Below are positions 4,646 to 63,371 of a stretch of DNA of 64,000 bases, piece by piece (positions within the stretch are counted from its first letter, which is position 1; each line of letters begins with the position of its first letter). Source of the DNA: Shigella phage Sfk20. The position numbers and the translations under genes are program-made. Location: sequence record MW341595; one strand, written 5' to 3'. The notes under the pieces are model-generated. The model was not told where the DNA came from and did no database searches. It saw only the letters and a program-made list of their open reading frames with translations.

Positions 4646-5661
4646 TGTGTTGCCTCTACATATAACTGATTTGCATATTGAATAAGTGCTTCGCGATCAG
4701 AATCAGTGATGTCTGGAATTGCATTAATGTATTCTTCCATCAATGTCTGGAGAGATTGAACTTCAACTTCTTCACTATCATCTGACTCGACAGAGTTATC
4801 AATCTTTGACACAACTCGTAATGAATGCACAACTTTTTCTAGTTCAGATTCGAACTTCGTTAGATTTTTGTCTACTTCAGTTACTATAACACGCACTGAT
4901 AGATTTGTAAAATCTTTATAGTCAATTTTTCCCTTAAATGGATATTGAATTCGACGATGCCAGGTAGTGTTGTTTGGAATAAATTCCATTCGTTCTGTTT
5001 CTGTATCAAACATCCAGAACCCACGAGGGTCATTCTCGTCACCCGCAGTTAGTGTCCATGGTGTCCCAATATATCTGACGTTAGCAGCCTCAGAGATAGT
5101 ATGGAAGTGACCAGACCACACCTCTTTATAAGTCTTAAGGAAATCAGGTTCAAGACCGTGAGATTTCATTCCTTTATAAAAATAAAATCCATTCAGTTCC
5201 CAGTGACCAACACAAAAAGAAGCAGATGAAGTTTTGATGTGTTCAAGAATTTCACCAGTATTTTCTTCGCACATCCAAGGAATTAAATCAATCAAACATC
5301 CGTCAAAATCTACTGTAGTAGGCTTATCATATACTTTAACATTAGGATATTTAGCCAAAAGCTCAGTAGAAGCATTTGGAGTTAAAGTATTTTTAAAGTG
5401 CATATCATGGTTTCCTACGACAGTATGTAGGGTAATACCAGCATCATCAAGCATTTGAACTATTTCACGAGCGAACTCCATAGTTTTATGTGTGATTGCT
5501 TTTCGCACATCAAAAATATCGCCGTATTGAATCCATGTAGTAATTCCGTTTTTCTTAGAATATTCTATTGCTTGTTTAATTCCATCCAACTGAATGGATT
5601 GAACCCACTCATCATCGGCTTTAACACCTAAATGCCAATCACCTAAATTTAAAATTTTCAT
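4642..5661 (-). CDS. 47: recombination nuclease gp47 (Mre11-like phosphoesterase)
   Basis: 339 aa; calcineurin-like motifs (LGDWHLG, GDIFD, GNHD, GHWE/GHFH). Confidence 0.93.
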   Translation of the reverse strand: MKILNLGDWHLGVKADDEWVQSIQLDGIKQAIEYSKKNGITTWIQYGDIFDVRKAITHKTMEFAREIVQMLDDAGITLHTVVGNHDMHFKNTLTPNASTELLAKYPNVKVYDKPTTVDFDGCLIDLIPWMCEENTGEILEHIKTSSASFCVGHWELNGFYFYKGMKSHGLEPDFLKTYKEVWSGHFHTISEAANVRYIGTPWTLTAGDENDPRGFWMFDTETERMEFIPNNTTWHRRIQYPFKGKIDYKDFTNLSVRVIVTEVDKNLTKFESELEKVVHSLRVVSKIDNSVESDDSEEVEVQSLQTLMEEYINAIPDITDSDREALIQYANQLYVEATQ

Positions 5662-29988: not shown

Positions 29989-30450
29989 TCATTGAGTTTT
30001 AATTACTGCTTTAGAAGCCTTTCCTGGTAAACGACGACTGTTGATAATTGCCATCCTACATTGAAGCGACGGGTCTTTGAACTTCGCATTAGGTTTACAA
30101 ACTGTAAATCCAAGCCAAAGATTTCCATCTGTGATTTCTAAACGTCCAGGGCGATATTCAACCCCATCAATAAAATCCTCGTCAATGTCAGGACGCGGAG
30201 GCATACTCAGGAATTCATTAACTTCTAAAACATGGTCTTTTATTTTGTGGAATAATTCAAAAACATATGTCTCATCAATCTCTCGTTGAATTGCACGATC
30301 AAGAAGATGCTGAGAATATTTTAGATGAAACGATGAGACCCCTGCTGCTTTTGATGCCTCACGAATCTCATTGTTAATTTGACGAAACTCCGACTCAAAG
30401 TGACGACGAAGCTTATTTCGACGGATAAAAACTTCTGTGTTGATAGTCAT
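29989..30450 (-). CDS. regB: endoribonuclease RegB
   Basis: 153 aa; matches recalled T4 RegB; early promoter immediately upstream. Confidence 0.88.
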   Translation of the reverse strand: MTINTEVFIRRNKLRRHFESEFRQINNEIREASKAAGVSSFHLKYSQHLLDRAIQREIDETYVFELFHKIKDHVLEVNEFLSMPPRPDIDEDFIDGVEYRPGRLEITDGNLWLGFTVCKPNAKFKDPSLQCRMAIINSRRLPGKASKAVIKTQ

Positions 30451-30475
30451 GTTATTCTCCTCTTAACTGATAGAA

Positions 30476-30509
30476 AAATTATACCACAGTCAAGAGGAAA
30501 AGTAAACAG
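30476..30509 (-). promoter_or_regulatory. T4-type early promoter upstream of regB
   Basis: GTTTAC - 18 nt - TATAAT on minus strand, about 25 nt upstream of regB ATG. Confidence 0.6.
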
Positions 30510-30788
30510 TTATTCTTTAAATCTAATCAATTTATTCATAGACTTTGAAACTTCTGCACGGACCTCATGTAGGTTTTTAAGCTGTTCAAGACGTTGCTCA
30601 TAATAAGCAATTTCATCTTCTTCAAGACAGTCCTGTGAATCTTCTTTAAGATAACGCGCATAGTCCTGGAAAGCTTTACGGACTACTTCCTGGAAGTCAT
30701 CAAGACTTTGAATTTTCTTAGGAGCAACAGATACACGACGAGGGGCAGTATAATACTCATAACCAAACCCTGCGCTTAATTGAGCCAT
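30510..30788 (-). CDS. hypothetical protein
   Basis: Start ATG 30786-30788 overlapping upstream stop (TAATG). Confidence 0.45.
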
Positions 30789-31090
30789 TAATATTTTTCC
30801 TCTGGTTGGAACACAGCACGACAAGCCCACATACTGGCTTCTTTGAGTTTCGTTTTAGCAATAGTTAACTGATCGAGGCTTTCAGCATAATTCTTCGCGA
30901 ATTCACAGTCTTCACAATTATCCAGTGCTTCCCAGAATTCATCGTATAAAGCGTCAAAGATAAGTCCTAAACGAACTTCAGCATCTTTGATAGCATTCAC
31001 TTTACCGATTTTCTCTTCAGTATGTGGCTTATAACCTTTAATATCTTCAATCATATTTGACTTCCTCACCAGTACATAAATCATATTCAA
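30788..31090 (-). CDS. hypothetical protein (T4 vs.4 position)
   Basis: 100 aa acidic ORF. Confidence 0.45.
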
Positions 31091-31268
31091 CTAAACGAAT
31101 AGGTTCATGAATGCCATATCCTTGAACAGAAATTTCTGTCGTAGGATAAATTCCATCAATATCACCCATGGTCCACGCTTCATTAAATTGCTGTTCGCCT
31201 GAATTACTAAACCACTCGGCGAAAGCATTTAACACATCTTTAGAACCTTCAATAATTATCTTTGCCAT
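31047..31268 (-). CDS. hypothetical protein
   Basis: 73 aa ORF. Confidence 0.4.
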   Translation of the reverse strand: MAKIIIEGSKDVLNAFAEWFSNSGEQQFNEAWTMGDIDGIYPTTEISVQGYGIHEPIRLVEYDLCTGEEVKYD

Positions 31269-31630
31269 TACAAGCTCTCAGTAAAGGTACGAGCGATAAC
31301 GTCGCGCTGCTGTTCCGGAGTCAGAGAGTTAAAGCGAACTGCATAACCGGATACACGGATGGTCAGCTGCGGATATTTTTCCGGATGCTTAACTGCATCT
31401 TCCAGAGTTTCACGACGCAGAACGTTAACGTTCAGGTGCTGACCACCTTCAATTTTAACTGTAGGCTGTGGTTCAATTTCAATTTCACGGGTGTGCAAAC
31501 CGTAGAAAATTTCTGGGTCTACAAAAGAGTCCTCTTTAAAGGTTTTAGAAACAATAATTCGTGCTTGAATACCATCTTCAAAATAAATAGTACCTTTATG
31601 TGTGCCTTCAAGAATTTGATATGCTTTCAT
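31268..31630 (-). CDS. autonomous glycyl radical cofactor (GrcA/YfiD-like)
   Basis: 120 aa; C-terminus [33 protein letters not shown] matches pyruvate formate-lyase glycyl-radical domain. Confidence 0.8.
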
Positions 31631-31636
31631 ATAACC

Positions 31637-32017
31637 TCAATTAGAAAATAAATTTATCCAAGACTGTTCTTTAATTAAAAATGGCTCAGAATCATATGCC
31701 ATTAAACTTTGGGTGATTAGTCCTTTAAAAGGTCCATCAATAAATTCCATGGTAAAATATGGAATTTTATTCATTAATCTTGCATTAGGAGCAGTACACA
31801 AAACTCTGCATCCTTTGAATACACCTTTTTGTAATTTGTATTGCTTAGGATAAAATTCGCTCAAGACGTTGTTATTTGCCAAAATTTCAAAATGATTCAC
31901 CAATTTATTTTTAATAGTTTTTGGCGAAAAATAAAGATATTCGAAAAGCTGTGTGTCTGTCATCATTGCATTCCGATTACGAAAAACTGCGGACGAGTAA
32001 TACCACCAGTGCAACAT
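31637..32017 (-). CDS. hypothetical protein
   Basis: 126 aa ORF. Confidence 0.45.
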   Translation of the reverse strand: MLHWWYYSSAVFRNRNAMMTDTQLFEYLYFSPKTIKNKLVNHFEILANNNVLSEFYPKQYKLQKGVFKGCRVLCTAPNARLMNKIPYFTMEFIDGPFKGLITQSLMAYDSEPFLIKEQSWINLFSN

Positions 32018-32550
32018 TTACTATTGCAACAGTATTGTACAGTTTCAATATGAATATCGTAAATTTTATCCATATCGGGAGATTTAACCGGCTCATCGAT
32101 TATATACAAAATCCGCGAAAGCGATAAACCTCTGAACTTGCTGCCTCTATTACCAACAAAACTACGGACAGAATCAGTAAATAAGCGGAATCGAATATCG
32201 TCACTAGAATAACGAGAAAATTCTTTTTTAATGTGGCCTGCAGAAATTTTAGCGTAAGCTGAAGTATTAGAAAGAACAATAACTGTTCCACCATCATACA
32301 GCCAATTAGCAGCAAAGTTAGTCACAGCAGTTGATTTACCGGATTGACGTCCACCATCTAGTCGAAGTGTGCAATACTGTTTGAGTAAGTCTTCAAATGG
32401 TAGGATATAATCGTTTTTACAAATTTCTTCTACTCTAGCATCAGAATGGTATGTAAAAGCATTCATCAGGGATAGATAAGGACCAGTTAAAAATGTTCTC
32501 ATTTTATTCTCTCTAAATTTGGGCCATTCCATGGCGCATGAATTGTCCAT
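31963..32550 (-). CDS. hypothetical P-loop NTPase
   Basis: Walker A GGRQSGKST and Walker B-like ILYIIDEP; start ambiguous among three Met. Confidence 0.5.
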   Translation of the reverse strand: MDNSCAMEWPKFRENKMRTFLTGPYLSLMNAFTYHSDARVEEICKNDYILPFEDLLKQYCTLRLDGGRQSGKSTAVTNFAANWLYDGGTVIVLSNTSAYAKISAGHIKKEFSRYSSDDIRFRLFTDSVRSFVGNRGSKFRGLSLSRILYIIDEPVKSPDMDKIYDIHIETVQYCCNSKCCTGGITRPQFFVIGMQ

Positions 32551-32655
32551 TTCTGTATTTACCCATTACCGCACTTGGGCTCGACCTTATTACAGGTTGG
32601 CGGGAATCCCTCATAGAATCATGAGGTCCAGCTTGTTCCCATATTTCTTATTTGC

Positions 32656-33129
32656 TTATTTGAATGATTTGACGTACTGAATAGAGCCTTTGCTATTCAC
32701 GAAAGCGATTTTACCATTTTTGTTATACATGGTAGCAGTACGCTGATAACCATAAGTTTGTTTACCAGATTGATAACCAACTAATGCAAAATTATCTTCA
32801 CCCATTTTATTCTGCTTCGCGCGGATACGTTCATGACCATGTGCCATAAGAACCTTAGCGTCGCCAGTTGCAATGGATCTACGAGTTTTTTCATCTTCAA
32901 CTGTATTAACAAAGTCGTCAAATGAATCAAATTTAGCGTGAGATTTATTATACAGTTTTCCATCTACTGCATAATTATATCCCTGTACATCCATCTCAAC
33001 TTCTGTACCATCATCCAATACAGCAGTGATTTTTTGACCTTTTTTAAATTTCAAAAGATCAGTAAAAGATTCAGCGATAATTTGAGAATTAATAGCTGCT
33101 TCAGTGATAAATTCTTGATATGTTTTCAT
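32656..33129 (-). CDS. candidate internal (capsid-packaged) protein with capsid targeting sequence
   Basis: N-terminus MKTYQEFITEA matches T4 internal-protein CTS consensus MKTYQEFIAE-A with (L/I)xE cleavage site. Confidence 0.6.
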   Translation of the reverse strand: MKTYQEFITEAAINSQIIAESFTDLLKFKKGQKITAVLDDGTEVEMDVQGYNYAVDGKLYNKSHAKFDSFDDFVNTVEDEKTRRSIATGDAKVLMAHGHERIRAKQNKMGEDNFALVGYQSGKQTYGYQRTATMYNKNGKIAFVNSKGSIQYVKSFK

Positions 33130-33138
33130 GTGTTTCCT

Positions 33139-33555
33139 TTAAATGTAAATAGTTTTACCGTAGTATTTATACCAGTGTGGCTTCATTAAAATTTTTTCAT
33201 CGAGTCGTTGTTGACTCAACTTAATAGCTGATTTGCATGGATTATAATCATTTTTCCATTCTGCTGGAATATCGCTGATGTCAGGAACTTCAGTATCTTT
33301 TATATTAAACCCACGTTTTAAGCATTCTGTTATAATGTCTGATTGACGCTTTCGCAAAAATTCTAACTTATCATAAAAGAACGTAACATGACCAGAGCCT
33401 AAAATAAACTCGGAAGATATTTTAAAATCTTTAACTCGCTTACCATTTGCAACATGTTTACGAACTATACCAAAAACACGCGGCAGTTCACGGTATTCTG
33501 CGATTAAATGTTGATCAGCAAGTTCAGATACTAAAGTCAAATTAATACGAGTCAT
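33139..33555 (-). CDS. denV: endonuclease V (pyrimidine dimer DNA glycosylase)
   Basis: 138 aa; N-terminus [29 protein letters not shown] matches recalled T4 DenV. Confidence 0.93.
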
Positions 33556-33578
33556 TTTATCCCTCCAAGTAACTGTGA

Positions 33579-33612
33579 ATATACTATCACAGTTCTAGAA
33601 GAAAGTAAACAA
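33579..33612 (-). promoter_or_regulatory. T4-type early promoter upstream of denV
   Basis: GTTTAC - 18 nt - TAGTAT on minus strand. Confidence 0.5.
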
Positions 33613-33614
33613 CT

Positions 33615-34145
<531 letters not shown>

Positions 34146-34601
34146 TTAAAAGAGGCTGTTCATTATTCGGTAAAGTGAAGGACCCATCACATATTGCCAC
34201 TGAGTACGAGGAATAAGAGCAAAAGCATCCATCTCTGGAATCATAACGCCATCTTTATTTTCAAAATAAGACTCGCAATGGCAATTTCTAAACATCTCAT
34301 GCTCTACTGGAATCGTATAATAAAATAACTGTAAGTCTTTATTACTGGAATATTTAAATACACCTAGGTCTTCTAGAAGGTCTGAATTATAATCGATAAA
34401 ACCAGTCTCTTCTGAGCATTCTCTTTTTGCAGCTTCCAGTGCATTCAAATCAGAACTTTCTACACGGCCCTTTGGAATATCCCAGCGATGTGCCATCATT
34501 CCAGGTTTACGAGAACCAGTAACTCGTCCCATAAATAAATCTTTATCTTCTGTCATAAAGATAATACCAGCTGATAATGTTTTCATTTTAATTTCCTGCA
34601 T
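34146..34601 (-). CDS. nudE: Nudix hydrolase
   Basis: 151 aa; Nudix box GRVESSDLNALEAAKRECSEETG. Confidence 0.75.
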   Translation of the reverse strand: MQEIKMKTLSAGIIFMTEDKDLFMGRVTGSRKPGMMAHRWDIPKGRVESSDLNALEAAKRECSEETGFIDYNSDLLEDLGVFKYSSNKDLQLFYYTIPVEHEMFRNCHCESYFENKDGVMIPEMDAFALIPRTQWQYVMGPSLYRIMNSLF

Positions 34602-35071
34602 TCAGTGATAAAGTTATTTAAATTTTGAGTATATTTCTTTTCATCAAAAATCTTTTGTTGTCTGCGTAGCCGCCATGGCATTTCAATGAACGTGTACCAT
34701 ATCCCAGATAATATTGCTGCTGTAAAAATATTAACAAGTATGGTTAAAAGAATCCAATCTCCTATTCTGTCCATTGGATTTTTTATAAAAAAGTAAAATA
34801 CGAATGATGTCACAGGAAGACTAATAATATACCACAGAATCATAATTTTATCTGTGAACCAATCAGCGTTCGTTAACTTAGCGCGACCATTATGAATACA
34901 CACGAATTTATCGTCTGTTATAGTAGATGGCTTAACTGGTTGATATCCCATTCTAAACTCCCTAATCAACAAATTTTTCATATCTTCGGAACAGCCATTC
35001 CAGTCAACTCTATCAACTGGAATGCCATCATCCCCATCATCTAAATCATACCAGCGAGTTTTTAAAATCAT
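34583..35071 (-). CDS. hypothetical membrane protein (family of three)
   Basis: 162 aa; two TM helices; C-terminal motif NNFITECRKLK. Confidence 0.5.
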   Translation of the reverse strand: MILKTRWYDLDDGDDGIPVDRVDWNGCSEDMKNLLIREFRMGYQPVKPSTITDDKFVCIHNGRAKLTNADWFTDKIMILWYIISLPVTSFVFYFFIKNPMDRIGDWILLTILVNIFTAAILSGIWYTFIEMPWRLRRQQKIFDEKKYTQNLNNFITECRKLK

Positions 35072-35430
35072 TTGATTTTCCTACAATCATTCACGAATTC
35101 TTTCATTGATTCATTTTCAATATAAGACATGTAGCTATTGTATTCTTTTAATTGTATTTTGTAATCCTTTTTTCTTTGCCAATTTATTTTAAAATTATCA
35201 TAATGAAAATATAGTATAGTACCAAAGAATGAAAATAATGAAATCGCTATAGTATAACGAAGTTCGCTCCAAACCTCTGTTATAATTGCTGAACTATCGA
35301 CGTTTAAAATAAAACAGTCAATCATTAGTCCAATAAGACTACCCGCAAGAGCTGCAAATACTGATACGGCAAGAATTAATAGTGCCTCAAGAAACGAATA
35401 TTTGACTTTATTTAGTTTTGGCTTTTGCAT
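35068..35430 (-). CDS. hypothetical membrane protein (family of three)
   Basis: 120 aa; two TM helices; C-terminal motif KEFVNDCRKIK. Confidence 0.5.
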   Translation of the reverse strand: MQKPKLNKVKYSFLEALLILAVSVFAALAGSLIGLMIDCFILNVDSSAIITEVWSELRYTIAISLFSFFGTILYFHYDNFKINWQRKKDYKIQLKEYNSYMSYIENESMKEFVNDCRKIK

Positions 35431-35825
35431 CGTGATTCCTTAACAAATTTCATAATTTCGTTAAATTCATACATATCTAGTTTAAGCTGGTGTTCCTTTT
35501 TAATCTTTTTACACTGAGCTTTCCATTCACGTACGCGTTTACGATAATGTCTTCCTTGATACCAGTATCCTACCCAATTTACAGGTACTAATAAAAATGG
35601 AACTACCAATGGAAGAATTAGTGTTGCTCCAAATATTACACCAGATTCAATATCAGTCATAACGTCTATAACCATTCCAGCAATCAGCAGAATCACAAAT
35701 GATACAGCTACCACAGGACCTATTAACACATCAGTAGAAATTAGCTGACGCTTTGGTTCATACTTCACAGGTTTACTTGGAAGGTATAGTGATGGCTTTG
35801 ACATATTCTCTACATTCCTTAACAA
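35412..35825 (-). CDS. hypothetical membrane protein (family of three)
   Basis: 137 aa; two TM helices; C-terminal motif MKFVKESRCK. Confidence 0.5.
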   Translation of the reverse strand: MLRNVENMSKPSLYLPSKPVKYEPKRQLISTDVLIGPVVAVSFVILLIAGMVIDVMTDIESGVIFGATLILPLVVPFLLVPVNWVGYWYQGRHYRKRVREWKAQCKKIKKEHQLKLDMYEFNEIMKFVKESRCKSQN

Positions 35826-36393
35826 ATTTTTCTAATAATAAATCGCTTTCAAAATTGGGATTTTCTACGAATTTATCAAAAAGATCATCAACAATAGTTA
35901 AGATATTCTTTTTACTAAGAATACGTTTATTTTCATGCTTTGTTTCAGAATCAACTATAAGAGTAAAGAAATATTTCTTTCCCTGAAATTTTACCGTAGT
36001 ATCAATATAGAACAAATTTGACTTTTGTAAATTACGTTTAAACCATGCATCACTTAAACTATAAACGCCAAGATAATCATAATCGTCGTTTAAATAACAA
36101 ACCGTCCATTCAGGAGAAATGAAATCAGTAAATTCAACATCAAAATCACACGTCAATGAATGAATTGATTCAATACTGTTAATGAGTATTCCAGGACGTA
36201 TTAAAGACTTTTTACCTCTAGAAAATCTTCCGGAAAGGCTTTCATCAGTTTCATATGAAGACCCCCAATAGTAATTACGTCCTTCTGCCATGCGTTTAAG
36301 AGCATTTAGTAATTGGTCTGGAACATCAACCTGTCTTTGGAACTCTTCAAACATTGAATTGAAATCACTTTGCATTTTCATTTTCATTTTCAT
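35773..36393 (-). CDS. hypothetical protein
   Basis: 206 aa ORF. Confidence 0.5.
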   Translation of the reverse strand: MKMKMKMQSDFNSMFEEFQRQVDVPDQLLNALKRMAEGRNYYWGSSYETDESLSGRFSRGKKSLIRPGILINSIESIHSLTCDFDVEFTDFISPEWTVCYLNDDYDYLGVYSLSDAWFKRNLQKSNLFYIDTTVKFQGKKYFFTLIVDSETKHENKRILSKKNILTIVDDLFDKFVENPNFESDLLLEKFVKECREYVKAITIPSK

Positions 36394-37980: not shown

Positions 37981-38544
37981 TTATTTGCCTAGTTTAGTTA
38001 TTATAGCTTCGGCAGCAGCTTTTAGCTTAGATGCGGTGTTAATACGATTTTTAATTTCAGTATACGCATCGCCAAGAACATCAAGGCTATCAGAATAAAC
38101 ACTTACACTATTGCGTTCGCTATTTGAAATAGAACCTTTAGTTTTACGATCAAAATCGGTGTACACGTCTTGAAGATCGCGGGCTGCCTTCTTTGCATCA
38201 TCCAATGCATCAAGAGCTTTATTCAAAGCATTAACGTATTTTTTAGTGTCGAACATATTCTTAGAAATTTTAACAGGTGCACGTTCAGGAGTAGCTAATA
38301 CAGATTTAGGAACCTGAGCGCCAGATGCCAATTTCTTAGAAATTTTGAAAAATGCTTTATTGAATTTATTTTCTTGACTCATTGTAAAAGAACTATTATC
38401 GATGTTGTACATTTCAATAGCTTTAGCTTTCCACTTAAGAAAATCGCCGCGGTCTTTTGGGTCCAATTGGAAGAATACTTTAGTAAGATCTGCTTCAGAT
38501 GGTAATTTTGCTGCTTCGGTTAAAAATTCGGCATAGGTTTTCAT
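37981..38544 (-). CDS. candidate internal (capsid-packaged) protein with capsid targeting sequence
   Basis: N-terminus MKTYAEFLTEA (CTS consensus with LTE-A cleavage site); own terminator hairpin downstream. Confidence 0.6.
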   Translation of the reverse strand: MKTYAEFLTEAAKLPSEADLTKVFFQLDPKDRGDFLKWKAKAIEMYNIDNSSFTMSQENKFNKAFFKISKKLASGAQVPKSVLATPERAPVKISKNMFDTKKYVNALNKALDALDDAKKAARDLQDVYTDFDRKTKGSISNSERNSVSVYSDSLDVLGDAYTEIKNRINTASKLKAAAEAIITKLGK

Positions 38545-39895: not shown

Positions 39896-39971
39896 TGGTC
39901 GAGGCAGTAGGGATCGAACCTACGACCTAGGACTTAGAAGGTCCTTGCTCTTCCTTCTGAGCTATGCCTCG
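39896..39971 (-). tRNA. tRNA-Arg (anticodon UCU)
   Basis: 76 nt cloverleaf; acceptor CGAGGCA/UGCCUCG, anticodon stem AGGAC/GUCCU, loop CUUCUAA, T-arm GUAGG-UUCGAUC-CCUAC, CCA encoded. Confidence 0.9.
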
Positions 39972-39975
39972 GATT

Positions 39976-40050
39976 TGGCGGACGTGATAGGATTCGAACC
40001 TATAACCAATCGCTTAACAGGCGATCGCTCTGCCATTGAGCTACACATCC
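39976..40050 (-). tRNA. tRNA-Asn (anticodon GUU)
   Basis: 75 nt; acceptor GGAUGUG/CACGUCC, D-arm GCUC-AAUGGCA-GAGC, anticodon stem AUCGC/GCGAU, loop CUGUUAA, T-arm AUAGG-UUCGAAU-CCUAU, CCA encoded. Confidence 0.88.
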
Positions 40051-40054
40051 AAAT

Positions 40055-40141
40055 TGGTGGGGAGTGATGGAGTCGAACCACCCGAGTCGCAATGACAATG
40101 GATTTACAGTCCACACCGCTACCTCTACGGGATAACTCCCC
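40055..40141 (-). tRNA. tRNA-Tyr (anticodon GUA), long variable arm
   Basis: 87 nt; acceptor GGGGAGU/ACUCCCC, anticodon stem-loop GUGGA-CUGUAAA-UCCAU, ~15 nt variable arm, T-arm GGUGG-UUCGACU-CCAUC, CCA encoded. Confidence 0.85.
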
Positions 40142-40150
40142 AAATTAATT

Positions 40151-40225
40151 TGGTGGCCCTGGGTGGAATTGAACCACCATCTGGCGATTATGAGTCGCTT
40201 GCTTGAACCTTCCAGCTACAGGGCC
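40151..40225 (-). tRNA. tRNA with anticodon CAU (Ile2/Met type; T4 tRNA-Ile equivalent)
   Basis: 75 nt; acceptor GGCCCUG/CAGGGCC, anticodon loop CUCAUAA, T-arm GGUGG-UUCAAUU-CCACC, CCA encoded. Confidence 0.85.
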
Positions 40226-40226
40226 T

Positions 40227-40302
40227 TGGTGCTGATTGACGGAATCGAACCGCCGACCTTCTCATTACAAGTGAGTTGCTCTACCTACTGAGCTAAATCA
40301 GC
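40227..40302 (-). tRNA. tRNA-Thr (anticodon UGU)
   Basis: 76 nt; acceptor GCUGAUU/AAUCAGC, D-arm GCUC-AGUAGGUA-GAGC, anticodon loop CUUGUAA, CCA encoded. Confidence 0.88.
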
Positions 40303-40307
40303 AAAAC

Positions 40308-40397
40308 TGGCGGAGGCGATAGGATTTGAACCTATGAGTCGCCGGAGCGACTGCCGGTTTTCAAGACCGGTGCATTAAACCACTCTGCCACGCCTCC
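40308..40397 (-). tRNA. tRNA-Ser (anticodon UGA), long variable arm
   Basis: 90 nt; acceptor GGAGGCG/CGCCUCC, anticodon stem-loop CCGGU-CUUGAAA-ACCGG, long variable arm, T-arm AUAGG-UUCAAAU-CCUAU, CCA encoded. Confidence 0.88.
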
Positions 40398-40399
40398 AG

Positions 40400-40473
40400 T
40401 CTCCATACAAGGATTTGAACCTTGGACCTCCTGATCCCAAATCAGGCGCTCTACCAAACTGAGCTACACGGAG
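40400..40473 (-). tRNA. tRNA-Pro (anticodon UGG)
   Basis: 74 nt; acceptor CUCCGUG/UAUGGAG (two G-U pairs), anticodon stem-loop CCUGA-UUUGGGA-UCAGG, T-arm CAAGG-UUCAAAU-CCUUG, CCA not encoded. Confidence 0.85.
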
Positions 40474-40483
40474 TAAATTAAAT

Positions 40484-40557
<74 letters not shown>

Positions 40558-40562
40558 AAATT

Positions 40563-40649
40563 TGGTGCGAGAAGTGGGACTCGAACCCACAAGGAAATCA
40601 TTCCGCAGCATTTTAAGTGCTGTGCCTTTACCAATTTGACCATTCTCGC
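40563..40649 (-). tRNA. tRNA-Leu (anticodon UAA), long variable arm
   Basis: 87 nt; acceptor GCGAGAA/UUCUCGC, anticodon stem-loop CAGCA-CUUAAAA-UGCUG, T-arm GUGGG-UUCGAGU-CCCAC, CCA encoded. Confidence 0.88.
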
Positions 40650-40650
40650 G

Positions 40651-40723
40651 CTGGGAATAAAGGACTCGAACCTTTGCATCCTGGAATCAAAATCCAGTGC
40701 CTTACCAACTTGGCTAATTCCCA
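40651..40723 (-). tRNA. tRNA-Gln (anticodon UUG)
   Basis: 73 nt; acceptor UGGGAAU/AUUCCCA, anticodon stem-loop CUGGA-UUUUGAU-UCCAG, T-arm AAAGG-UUCGAGU-CCUUU, CCA not encoded. Confidence 0.85.

Positions 40724-61669: not shown

Positions 61670-63371
<1,702 letters not shown>

Follow-up and report, generated by a model that had tools for sequence, protein, structure and literature searches.

A stretch of 64,000 nucleotides from the genome of Shigella phage Sfk20 (sequence record MW341595), hereafter the window, was analysed at the locus between the lysozyme gene e and gene vs.8. Taken as a whole, this locus is quite probably best explained as a T2-type ip4 locus with a structured RNA, similar to the small RNA (sRNA) SroH of Escherichia coli, in what had been described as a spacer. 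It apparently joins a known protein and a known gene order to an undescribed SroH-like phage RNA. The window is a segment of a Tequatrovirus (T4-like) genome that shares 99.2% identity with phages KNP1 and KNP5 over region 31900-33700. This region is matched by 831 GenBank phage records, and at least 164 records match 80% or more of the 1.8-kb vs.8-ip4-denV stretch. All the genes of the region are carried by the minus strand, to which all the features described below belong, and the order of transcription is e, denV, ip4, a gap of 153 nt, vs.8, vs.7 and vs.6/grcA.

The RNA element between ip4 and vs.8

Sequence comparison defines in the gap an element of about 120 nt, predicted to consist of a P1/P2 hairpin, a 49-nt three-way junction and a 3' block specific to T4-like phages. 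The 5' domain (32602-32640) was identified from the sequence and from the minimum free energy (MFE) fold. Its stem P1, formed by GGGAA at 32640-32636 and UUCCC at 32606-32602, encloses the P2 hairpin CCUCAU-GAUUCU-AUGAGG at 32626-32609. The nested stem-loop GGGAA...CCUCAU-GAUUCU-AUGAGG-GA-UUCCC that a first-pass annotation of this DNA had proposed is present, at 32640-32602. The same annotation had described the spacer 32551-32655 as unusually GC-rich. Enrichment exists but is moderate, the G+C content being 44.8% versus 35.0% for the window, and 4.5% of all 105-nt segments of the window are at least as G+C-rich.

The junction core (32557-32605) was delimited with a covariance model, R1, and with pair counts. 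Helix P3 pairs 32601-32598 with 32565 and 32563-32561, leaving a bulged G at 32564, and is followed by P4 (ACCU-GUAAUA-AGGU, 32597-32584), whose general form among relatives is (A/G)CCU-GUAAnA-AGG(U/C). The P4/P5 junction is CGA (32583-32581), a linker of the CNA type; after it come the short helix P5 (32580-32571) and the P5/P3 junction GGUAA (32570-32566). The downstream block AUGCGCCAUGGAAUGGCCC (32521-32539) is conserved across Tevenvirinae genera and could pair alternatively with the 3' half of the core, to which its sequence is complementary.

The stems of the element change in a compensatory manner. P1 reads GGGAA:UUCCC, GGGAG:CUCCC, AAAGG:CCUUU or AAAGC:GCUUU in relatives, and also AAAGA:UCUUU, GGGG:CCCC, GAGUG:CACUC or UGAGG:CCUCA. 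Despite this variety, 45 of the 47 distinct upstream sequences have a P1-type stem lying directly against the junction. Covariation in the core was evaluated with 39 distinct sequences, and a model-aligned set of 41 distinct rows gave the same outcome. Three P3 pairs are maintained in all 39: pair 8:41 (AU in 19, UG in 8, CG in 6 and UA in 6), pair 7:43 (CG in 28, GC in 5, UA in 4 and AU in 2) and pair 6:44 (CG in 32 and GC in 7). In P4, pair 9:22 changes twice from A-U to G-C. The covariation score was 0.278, versus at most 0.075 for controls in which the partners were slid by 1-3 columns, and none of 500 shuffles reached 0.278, a comparison that overstates significance because the sequences are phylogenetically related. 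The presence of U-G and G-U pairs makes the fold specific to the gene strand. Furthermore, 19 positions of the junction are invariant, part of this invariance having been imposed by the degenerate search pattern.

Two other arrangements of the core were considered and discarded. A competing helix, GCCC:GGGU (columns 26-29 with 42-45), is favoured by single-sequence folding but shows no covariation and is often broken. A P3 register lacking the bulge fared worse than the one that includes it. As for the pairing of the core with the block at 32521-32539, no covariation was detected, both strands being near-invariant, and the pairing potential is kept in the T4-like copies.

The element is not part of the Ip4 arrangement, because T4 carries the same sequence directly after denV. 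By blastn, homology with T4 restarts 12 nt past the ip4 stop codon and continues into vs.8 (window 32644-31610 versus T4 64942-63899, 92% identity), and the element itself, about 125 nt in this alignment, differs from T4 at five positions only (about 96% identity). The T4 annotation treats it as codons 1-40 of vs.8, starting from MRDSRQPVIRSS... In the window, the vs.8 homologue (31963-32502, a P-loop protein of 179 aa from MRTFL..., in a region 92% identical to T4) was assigned by PHROG 1488 and by the annotation of KNP5, in which the 179-aa form is given. The 195-aa vs.8 open reading frame (ORF) aligns from its residue 19 with the PHROG 1488 profile (177 positions), which begins at MRTFL, and the start of the longer ORF, which reaches 32550, is probably not the real one. 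In T4, the in-frame fusion of the element with vs.8 hinges on an 8-bp duplication, CTTATAGAG, which is absent from both the window and KNP5, and vs.8 has probably been annotated too long in T4. As a separate observation, the annotated vs.8 start codon of T4 (NC_000866, 64855-64912 of locus L002) falls within hairpin P2.

Spacer lengths between the conserved blocks are 29, 30 and 31 nt at one place and 14, 18, 20 and 52 nt at another. The core itself accumulates indels of 1-2 nt, and its conserved nucleotides fall in different frames in different phages. Such core indels, together with spacers that are not multiples of three, exclude coding, and comparison of the copies identifies the element as a non-coding structured RNA.

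Relationship with SroH

Model R1, although built with phage copies only, matched sroH of E. coli K-12 with 38.3 bits and an E-value of 7.5e-11. In this match P3 is kept by means of a compensatory G6:C44 pair, P5 changes from GC:GC to GG:CC, and the CNA and GGUAA linkers are conserved. Upstream of the junction, sroH also displays a hairpin within a stem (GGAUG...CUGAA-GAAA-UUCAG...CAUCC). SroH and the element have in common, and in the same order, P1 enclosing P2, P3 with the bulged G, P4, the CNA linker, a short P5 and the GGUAA linker. In addition, SroH shares with the T4-type element the 5' flank UCCCGC(C)AACCUG. On the basis of these sequence comparisons, we consider that the element is homologous to SroH in architecture and in junction sequence. 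The two differ in that SroH has a longer P4 with another loop (no GUAAnA) and its own Rho-independent terminator and is chromosomal, whereas the element of the window lacks a terminator and is embedded between genes.

Blastn of E. coli sroH against phages yielded chance matches only. Blastn being blind to it, the relation is visible only to a covariance model. The Rfam sroH model, for its part, carries no structure, and its alignment has in common with the element the words UCCCGC, AAGGUC-AG and CGGUAAUGG.

SroH is an sRNA of 161 nt whose deletion has been reported to cause sensitivity to envelope stress and which was cross-linked to Hfq in one study. Of 5426 complete E. coli genomes, 3743 contain its gene and about 31% do not. 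Where present, sroH (locus L062, E. coli K-12, 1828-1988) is single-copy and at least 99% identical, and such patchiness is unusual for a core sRNA.

Besides the relatedness of the sequences and the effect of the search pattern already mentioned, several results weigh against an SroH-like RNA in the gap. The comparison of Rfam sroH (RF00372) with the element of the window gave 10.0 bits and an E-value of 1.9, below the threshold (gathering score 80). The folding energy of the spacer is not exceptional with respect to shuffled sequences (z = 0.22), and MFE folds often miss the short helices P3 and P5. Scanning of the minus strand within 32500-32660 found neither a terminator nor a sigma-70 promoter, and the existence of a discrete RNA species is a prediction from the comparison of sequences. 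Finally, the literature on SroH offers neither a mechanism nor an established function.

Distribution of the element

A single copy was found by R1 in the window (65.4 bits, E-value 2.5e-18). Among IMG/VR and GenBank loci of Tequatro-, Gelderland-, Jiaoda- and Kanagawavirus, the element is situated 5' of vs.8 whichever gene precedes it; at three loci (L040, L043 and L045) it lies 5' of an inserted ip gene rather than of vs.8. Blastn searches with the element also gave matches of 88-95% identity over about 40 nt in the Vequintavirus phages Murica and HdK5 and in Pseudomonas phage PsgM04F, all of which lie within tRNA clusters, in gaps that carry no annotation. With a degenerate pattern, 45 loci were obtained from IMG/VR. 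Nearly all the loci that are not T4-like, including those of uncultured phages, are within a few hundred nt of tRNA genes on the same strand. At L053 the order is tRNA-Ser, motif and a terminator-like stem-loop with a U-run, and at L056 the motif is likewise followed by such a stem-loop, both read by eye.

The same pattern gave no real match in one genome each of 185,579 bacterial and archaeal species. The single match, in a metagenome-assembled genome of Ferruginibacter (L061), was rejected as due to chance, as the model does not recover it and it lies in a low-complexity, Ser-rich-looking stretch. ARAGORN detected no tRNA in the window outside 39896-40723. With regard to known RNA families, Rfam produced no match at E <= 1 in 30000-36000 and only chance-level matches at E <= 10; neither L053 nor the loci of Vequintavirus and of the Pseudomonas phage yielded a match at E <= 1. 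Resemblances to tRNA, to the Alu domain of the signal recognition particle RNA, to RNase P and to the hammerhead and hatchet ribozymes were considered and discarded, since they have no Rfam support and the lengths of the junction strands differ. Nothing relevant was found in the literature searched on the core sequence, on vs.8 or on RNA motifs in phage tRNA clusters.

Some loci carry more than one copy or repeated surroundings. In Klebsiella phage K65_evo9 (L037), two copies (653-811 and 1175-1338) flank an ipII-like gene, the second being a hybrid of the T4 and Melville types with a broken P3. Two tandem copies are found at IMG/VR locus L047 (about 5092-5251). In PsgM04F-like contigs (L048, 1750-2140; also L039, L042, L050, L052 and L010) a long stem, GUGCUCUUAUCGUUGUGAC ... 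GUCACAAC..GGUAAGAGCAU, closes units of about 190 nt that contain the motif; at a distance of 191 nt, a neighbouring unit shares these ends and lacks the motif. This arrangement resembles an array of RNAs, each enclosed by a stem, next to tRNAs. In the Vequintavirinae-like L055 and L057, a UAGAGGGCUUGA(U/A)AGUGC segment is repeated about 100 nt upstream and downstream of the motif.

Possible role of the element

We give slightly less than even weight to the possibility that the element, an SroH-like three-way junction with a hairpin before it, represents an unrecognised and widespread class of phage RNA, present at T4 vs.8, in more than 1000 GenBank phage records from T4-like and other lineages and beside tRNA clusters of Vequintavirinae and other phages, and that it functions as a non-coding RNA engaging a conserved host factor or a ligand. 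The invariant nucleotides of the junction would bind a conserved partner, which could be a small ligand or else a protein, of the host or of the phage, and the element would be released from the ip4/denV-vs.8 transcript, or retained in it, as a stable SroH-like module. More tentatively, the role that we prefer among those considered is that it may act as such a module, with a partner-binding junction, and not as DNA or as a peptide.

The possible roles other than this one were evaluated. The first is that the element is a cis-acting leader, riboswitch-like or working as a translational switch, for vs.8 or an ip gene, the three-way junction alternating with the pairing to 32521-32539. In T4-like phages the element is always directly 5' of a gene, its end being 10-35 nt from the start codon, and every T4-like copy retains the capacity of GGUCG...GUGCG to pair with UGCGC...UGGCC. 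The tandem copies of L047, an arrangement also known from some riboswitches, and the terminator-like stem-loops that follow the motif in L053 and L056 would fit this role as well. However, the alternative pairing lacks covariation because both strands are near-invariant, the Shine-Dalgarno sequence is outside the element, and the next feature in other phages is a tRNA or nothing. Since SroH, moreover, is a free-standing sRNA and no riboswitch of Rfam was matched, a leader function seems rather unlikely to us.

A role in RNA processing, in which the element, as a self-cleaving ribozyme or as a structure recognised by an RNase, would separate the upstream ip/denV or tRNA transcripts from the RNA downstream, is improbable. 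Its strong association with tRNA clusters, its compact junction with the 19 invariant positions and the phage restriction of the CCUGUAAnAAGG-hairpin variant, with no real match among the bacterial species genomes searched, are all compatible with processing. On the other hand, it does not resemble any ribozyme class known to Rfam, and SroH, in the middle of which the junction lies, accumulates at its full length of 161 nt.

We regard as still more improbable a role at the DNA level only, as a conserved recombination joint marking the 3' boundary of the ip cassettes, comparable with PeSL motifs or attC sites. T4 homology breaks exactly at the element, K65_evo9 has a copy on each side of its ipII-like gene, and the element is better conserved than its flanks. 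However, compensatory changes that include strand-specific G-U pairs point to folding as RNA or as a single strand, the element occurs beside tRNAs in unrelated phages without ip genes, and it shows no promoter-terminator composite of the PeSL style. PeSLs of T4-like phages (PMC2839356, PMC4122927) are likewise conserved intergenic motifs bordering variable cassettes. Judging by the published title, they are composite promoter-terminator motifs, unlike the element of the window, in which no sigma-70 promoter or terminator was detected and which is a larger three-way-junction RNA found also outside T4-like phages. A role as recombination flank can be a by-product of conservation, and by its conservation the element is a natural 3' homology arm for the exchange of ip cassettes.

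Finally, that the spacer is protein-coding, as an N-terminal extension of Vs.8 or as a short upstream ORF, has in its favour the T4 annotation spanning the element and, in the window, both the in-frame extension of vs.8 to 32550 and a 33-codon ORF across the core, yet we give it almost no credence given the T4-only duplication, the family profile starting at MRTFL, the frames disrupted by the 29-, 30- and 31-nt spacers and the core indels, the compensatory nature of the helix substitutions and the same core in non-coding gaps of tRNA clusters of unrelated phages.

The ip4 gene and the internal-protein locus

The ORF at 32656-33129, upstream of the element, encodes a protein of 157 aa that was identified as the internal head protein IpIV/Ip4. 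Its translation begins MKTYQEFITEAA (MKTYQEFITE and then A), in which nine of the ten residues coincide with MKTYQEFIAE, the T4 capsid targeting sequence (CTS) of IPII and IPIII, so that the almost perfect CTS reported by the first-pass annotation was borne out. The protein is identical in sequence to the T2 'IpIV internal head protein' (UniRef A0A2Z5WKT6_BPT2, 62 members) and to the RB14 and RB32 proteins, and near members of the UniRef cluster are named 'Ip4' or 'internal head protein 4'. In addition, PHROG 3155 ('internal virion protein') matches it over its full length (E-value 6e-102), and Pfam DUF7412 matches residues 1-157 with 319.4 bits, the cutoff being 27. Homologues (61-99% identity) were confined to T4-like phages, namely those of Escherichia, Salmonella, Klebsiella and Serratia.

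No full-length match to T4 IPII or IPIII was obtained. The alignment with IPIII is limited to 13 CTS residues, and that with IPII covers about 70 residues (1-70), CTS included, with 31% identity and 31 bits. By sequence, therefore, Ip4 is not a full-length orthologue of either protein, and tblastn detected no IPII or IPIII homologue beyond the CTS anywhere in the window. A motif scan revealed only two CTS-like ORFs in the window, this one included, and did not confirm the claim that the protein is the third CTS-bearing one. The other ORF (37981-38544) encodes 187 aa starting with MKTYAEFLTEA and is hypothetical in all annotations (RB14ORF136 type; PHROG 2280); it is probably an unnamed internal protein.

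Gene e (33615-34109) is a 164-aa ORF nearly identical to T4 e, the DNA of this region (34200-33566) being 95% identical to that of T4, and is preceded by TATAAATA motifs at 34123-34130 and 34136-34143. Gene denV (33139-33555, 138 aa) bears the label endonuclease V in the annotation of KNP5, a near-identical phage, and its 5' part (33559-33266) has 78.6% DNA identity with T4 denV. As the first-pass annotation had noted, e and denV are close together (the gap is of 59 bp) and a CTS gene follows denV, ip4 starting 9 bp past it. The T4 order that it had given, with ipII and ipIII between denV and e, also agrees with the T4 reference, e-ipIII-ipII-denV-vs.8. Comparison of synteny across T-even genomes showed that the e-to-vs.8 interval differs among phages: e is followed by ip4 in T2, which lacks denV there, by two ip genes in Melville, by ip, denV and an ORF in Q7622, and by ip and an ipII-like gene in K65_evo9. 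This interval is already known as an internal-protein locus that varies between genera of Tevenvirinae, and the locus of the window is an ordinary T2-type version of it. Consequently, the rearranged repertoire of internal proteins suspected before is real with respect to T4, IPII and IPIII being absent and Ip4 lying downstream of denV, but it is not novel, as it corresponds to a documented T-even polymorphism. The T2, RB14 and RB32 proteins have the same CTS and are also encoded next to the e/denV genes, with the difference that in T2 ip4 directly follows e, because the T2 interval is without denV, whereas here it follows denV.

Two side observations concern the annotation and the neighbourhood of these genes. 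In the T2 record (L063, AP018813), the ip4 ORF at 62429-62902 is labelled 'valyl tRNA synthetase modifier', and many neighbouring labels seem to have been mis-transferred. In vs.6/grcA of the window (31268-31630), the 3' half (nt 179-363) shares 98.9% DNA identity with the E. coli grcA of each of the 5426 complete E. coli genomes; this half, also locally G+C-rich, is recently host-derived DNA placed two genes from the SroH-like element.

An exact-match scan located the T4-type late-promoter consensus TATAAATA at 33164-33171, 35 nt 5' of the ip4 start and embedded in the last denV codons (WYKYYG); the equivalent position of T4 denV reads GTACAAATA. From this promoter ip4 would be transcribed late. 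The N-terminal CTS (residues 1-10, 33100-33129) would carry Ip4 into the prohead core, by analogy with T4 IPI, IPII and IPIII. The prohead protease gp21 is predicted to remove it after Glu10 (ITE|A), possibly with a second cut after Glu20, where another conserved I/M-x-E site ends; E10 and E20 are invariant in 13 of 13 family members, both preceded by I/M-x. The resulting basic product of 15-16 kDa, with a pI of about 9.1-9.3, would then be injected along with the DNA. Packaging, processing and injection are suggested by the CTS and by the name of the T2 record. T4 IPII and IPIII resemble Ip4 in the CTS, in about 60 nt of upstream and CTS DNA, in the late signals, in the e-to-vs.8 locus and in this presumed route, and differ from it in their mature parts, which are unrelated or barely related, and in their position relative to denV. 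The 60 nt at 33157-33098, in which upstream sequence is joined to CTS codons, share 92% identity with T4 ipII and ipIII at their 5' ends, and this conserved flank can mediate cassette exchange by homologous recombination. Exchange of ip cassettes would thus proceed through two conserved flanks, the promoter, ribosome-binding site and CTS segment at the 5' side and the RNA element at the 3' side.

T4 Ip1, Ip2 and Ip3 inhibit distinct GmrSD type IV restriction enzymes, and T2 and T6 are without ip2 and ip3 (PMC12373910); in ECOR17, IPIII is required (PMC9391042). By analogy, the most likely function of Ip4 would be to block a nuclease of host restriction or defence. The AlphaFold2 model of Ip4 (13-sequence alignment, pLDDT 50.4) was too poor to use.

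Implications

With Ip1, Ip2 and Ip3 now all tied to GmrSD enzymes, Ip4 is a candidate anti-restriction protein of the T2-type phages. The element next to its gene suggests that the vs.8 start of T4 is mis-annotated, and it is a candidate for the short list of T-even non-coding RNAs. Strong selection maintains the same junction in lytic phages of very different kinds, frequently beside their tRNA genes. If the element is indeed a widespread class of phage RNA, it would define a conserved fold for SroH, so that this orphan E. coli sRNA without known mechanism would gain a defined structure and a connection with phages.

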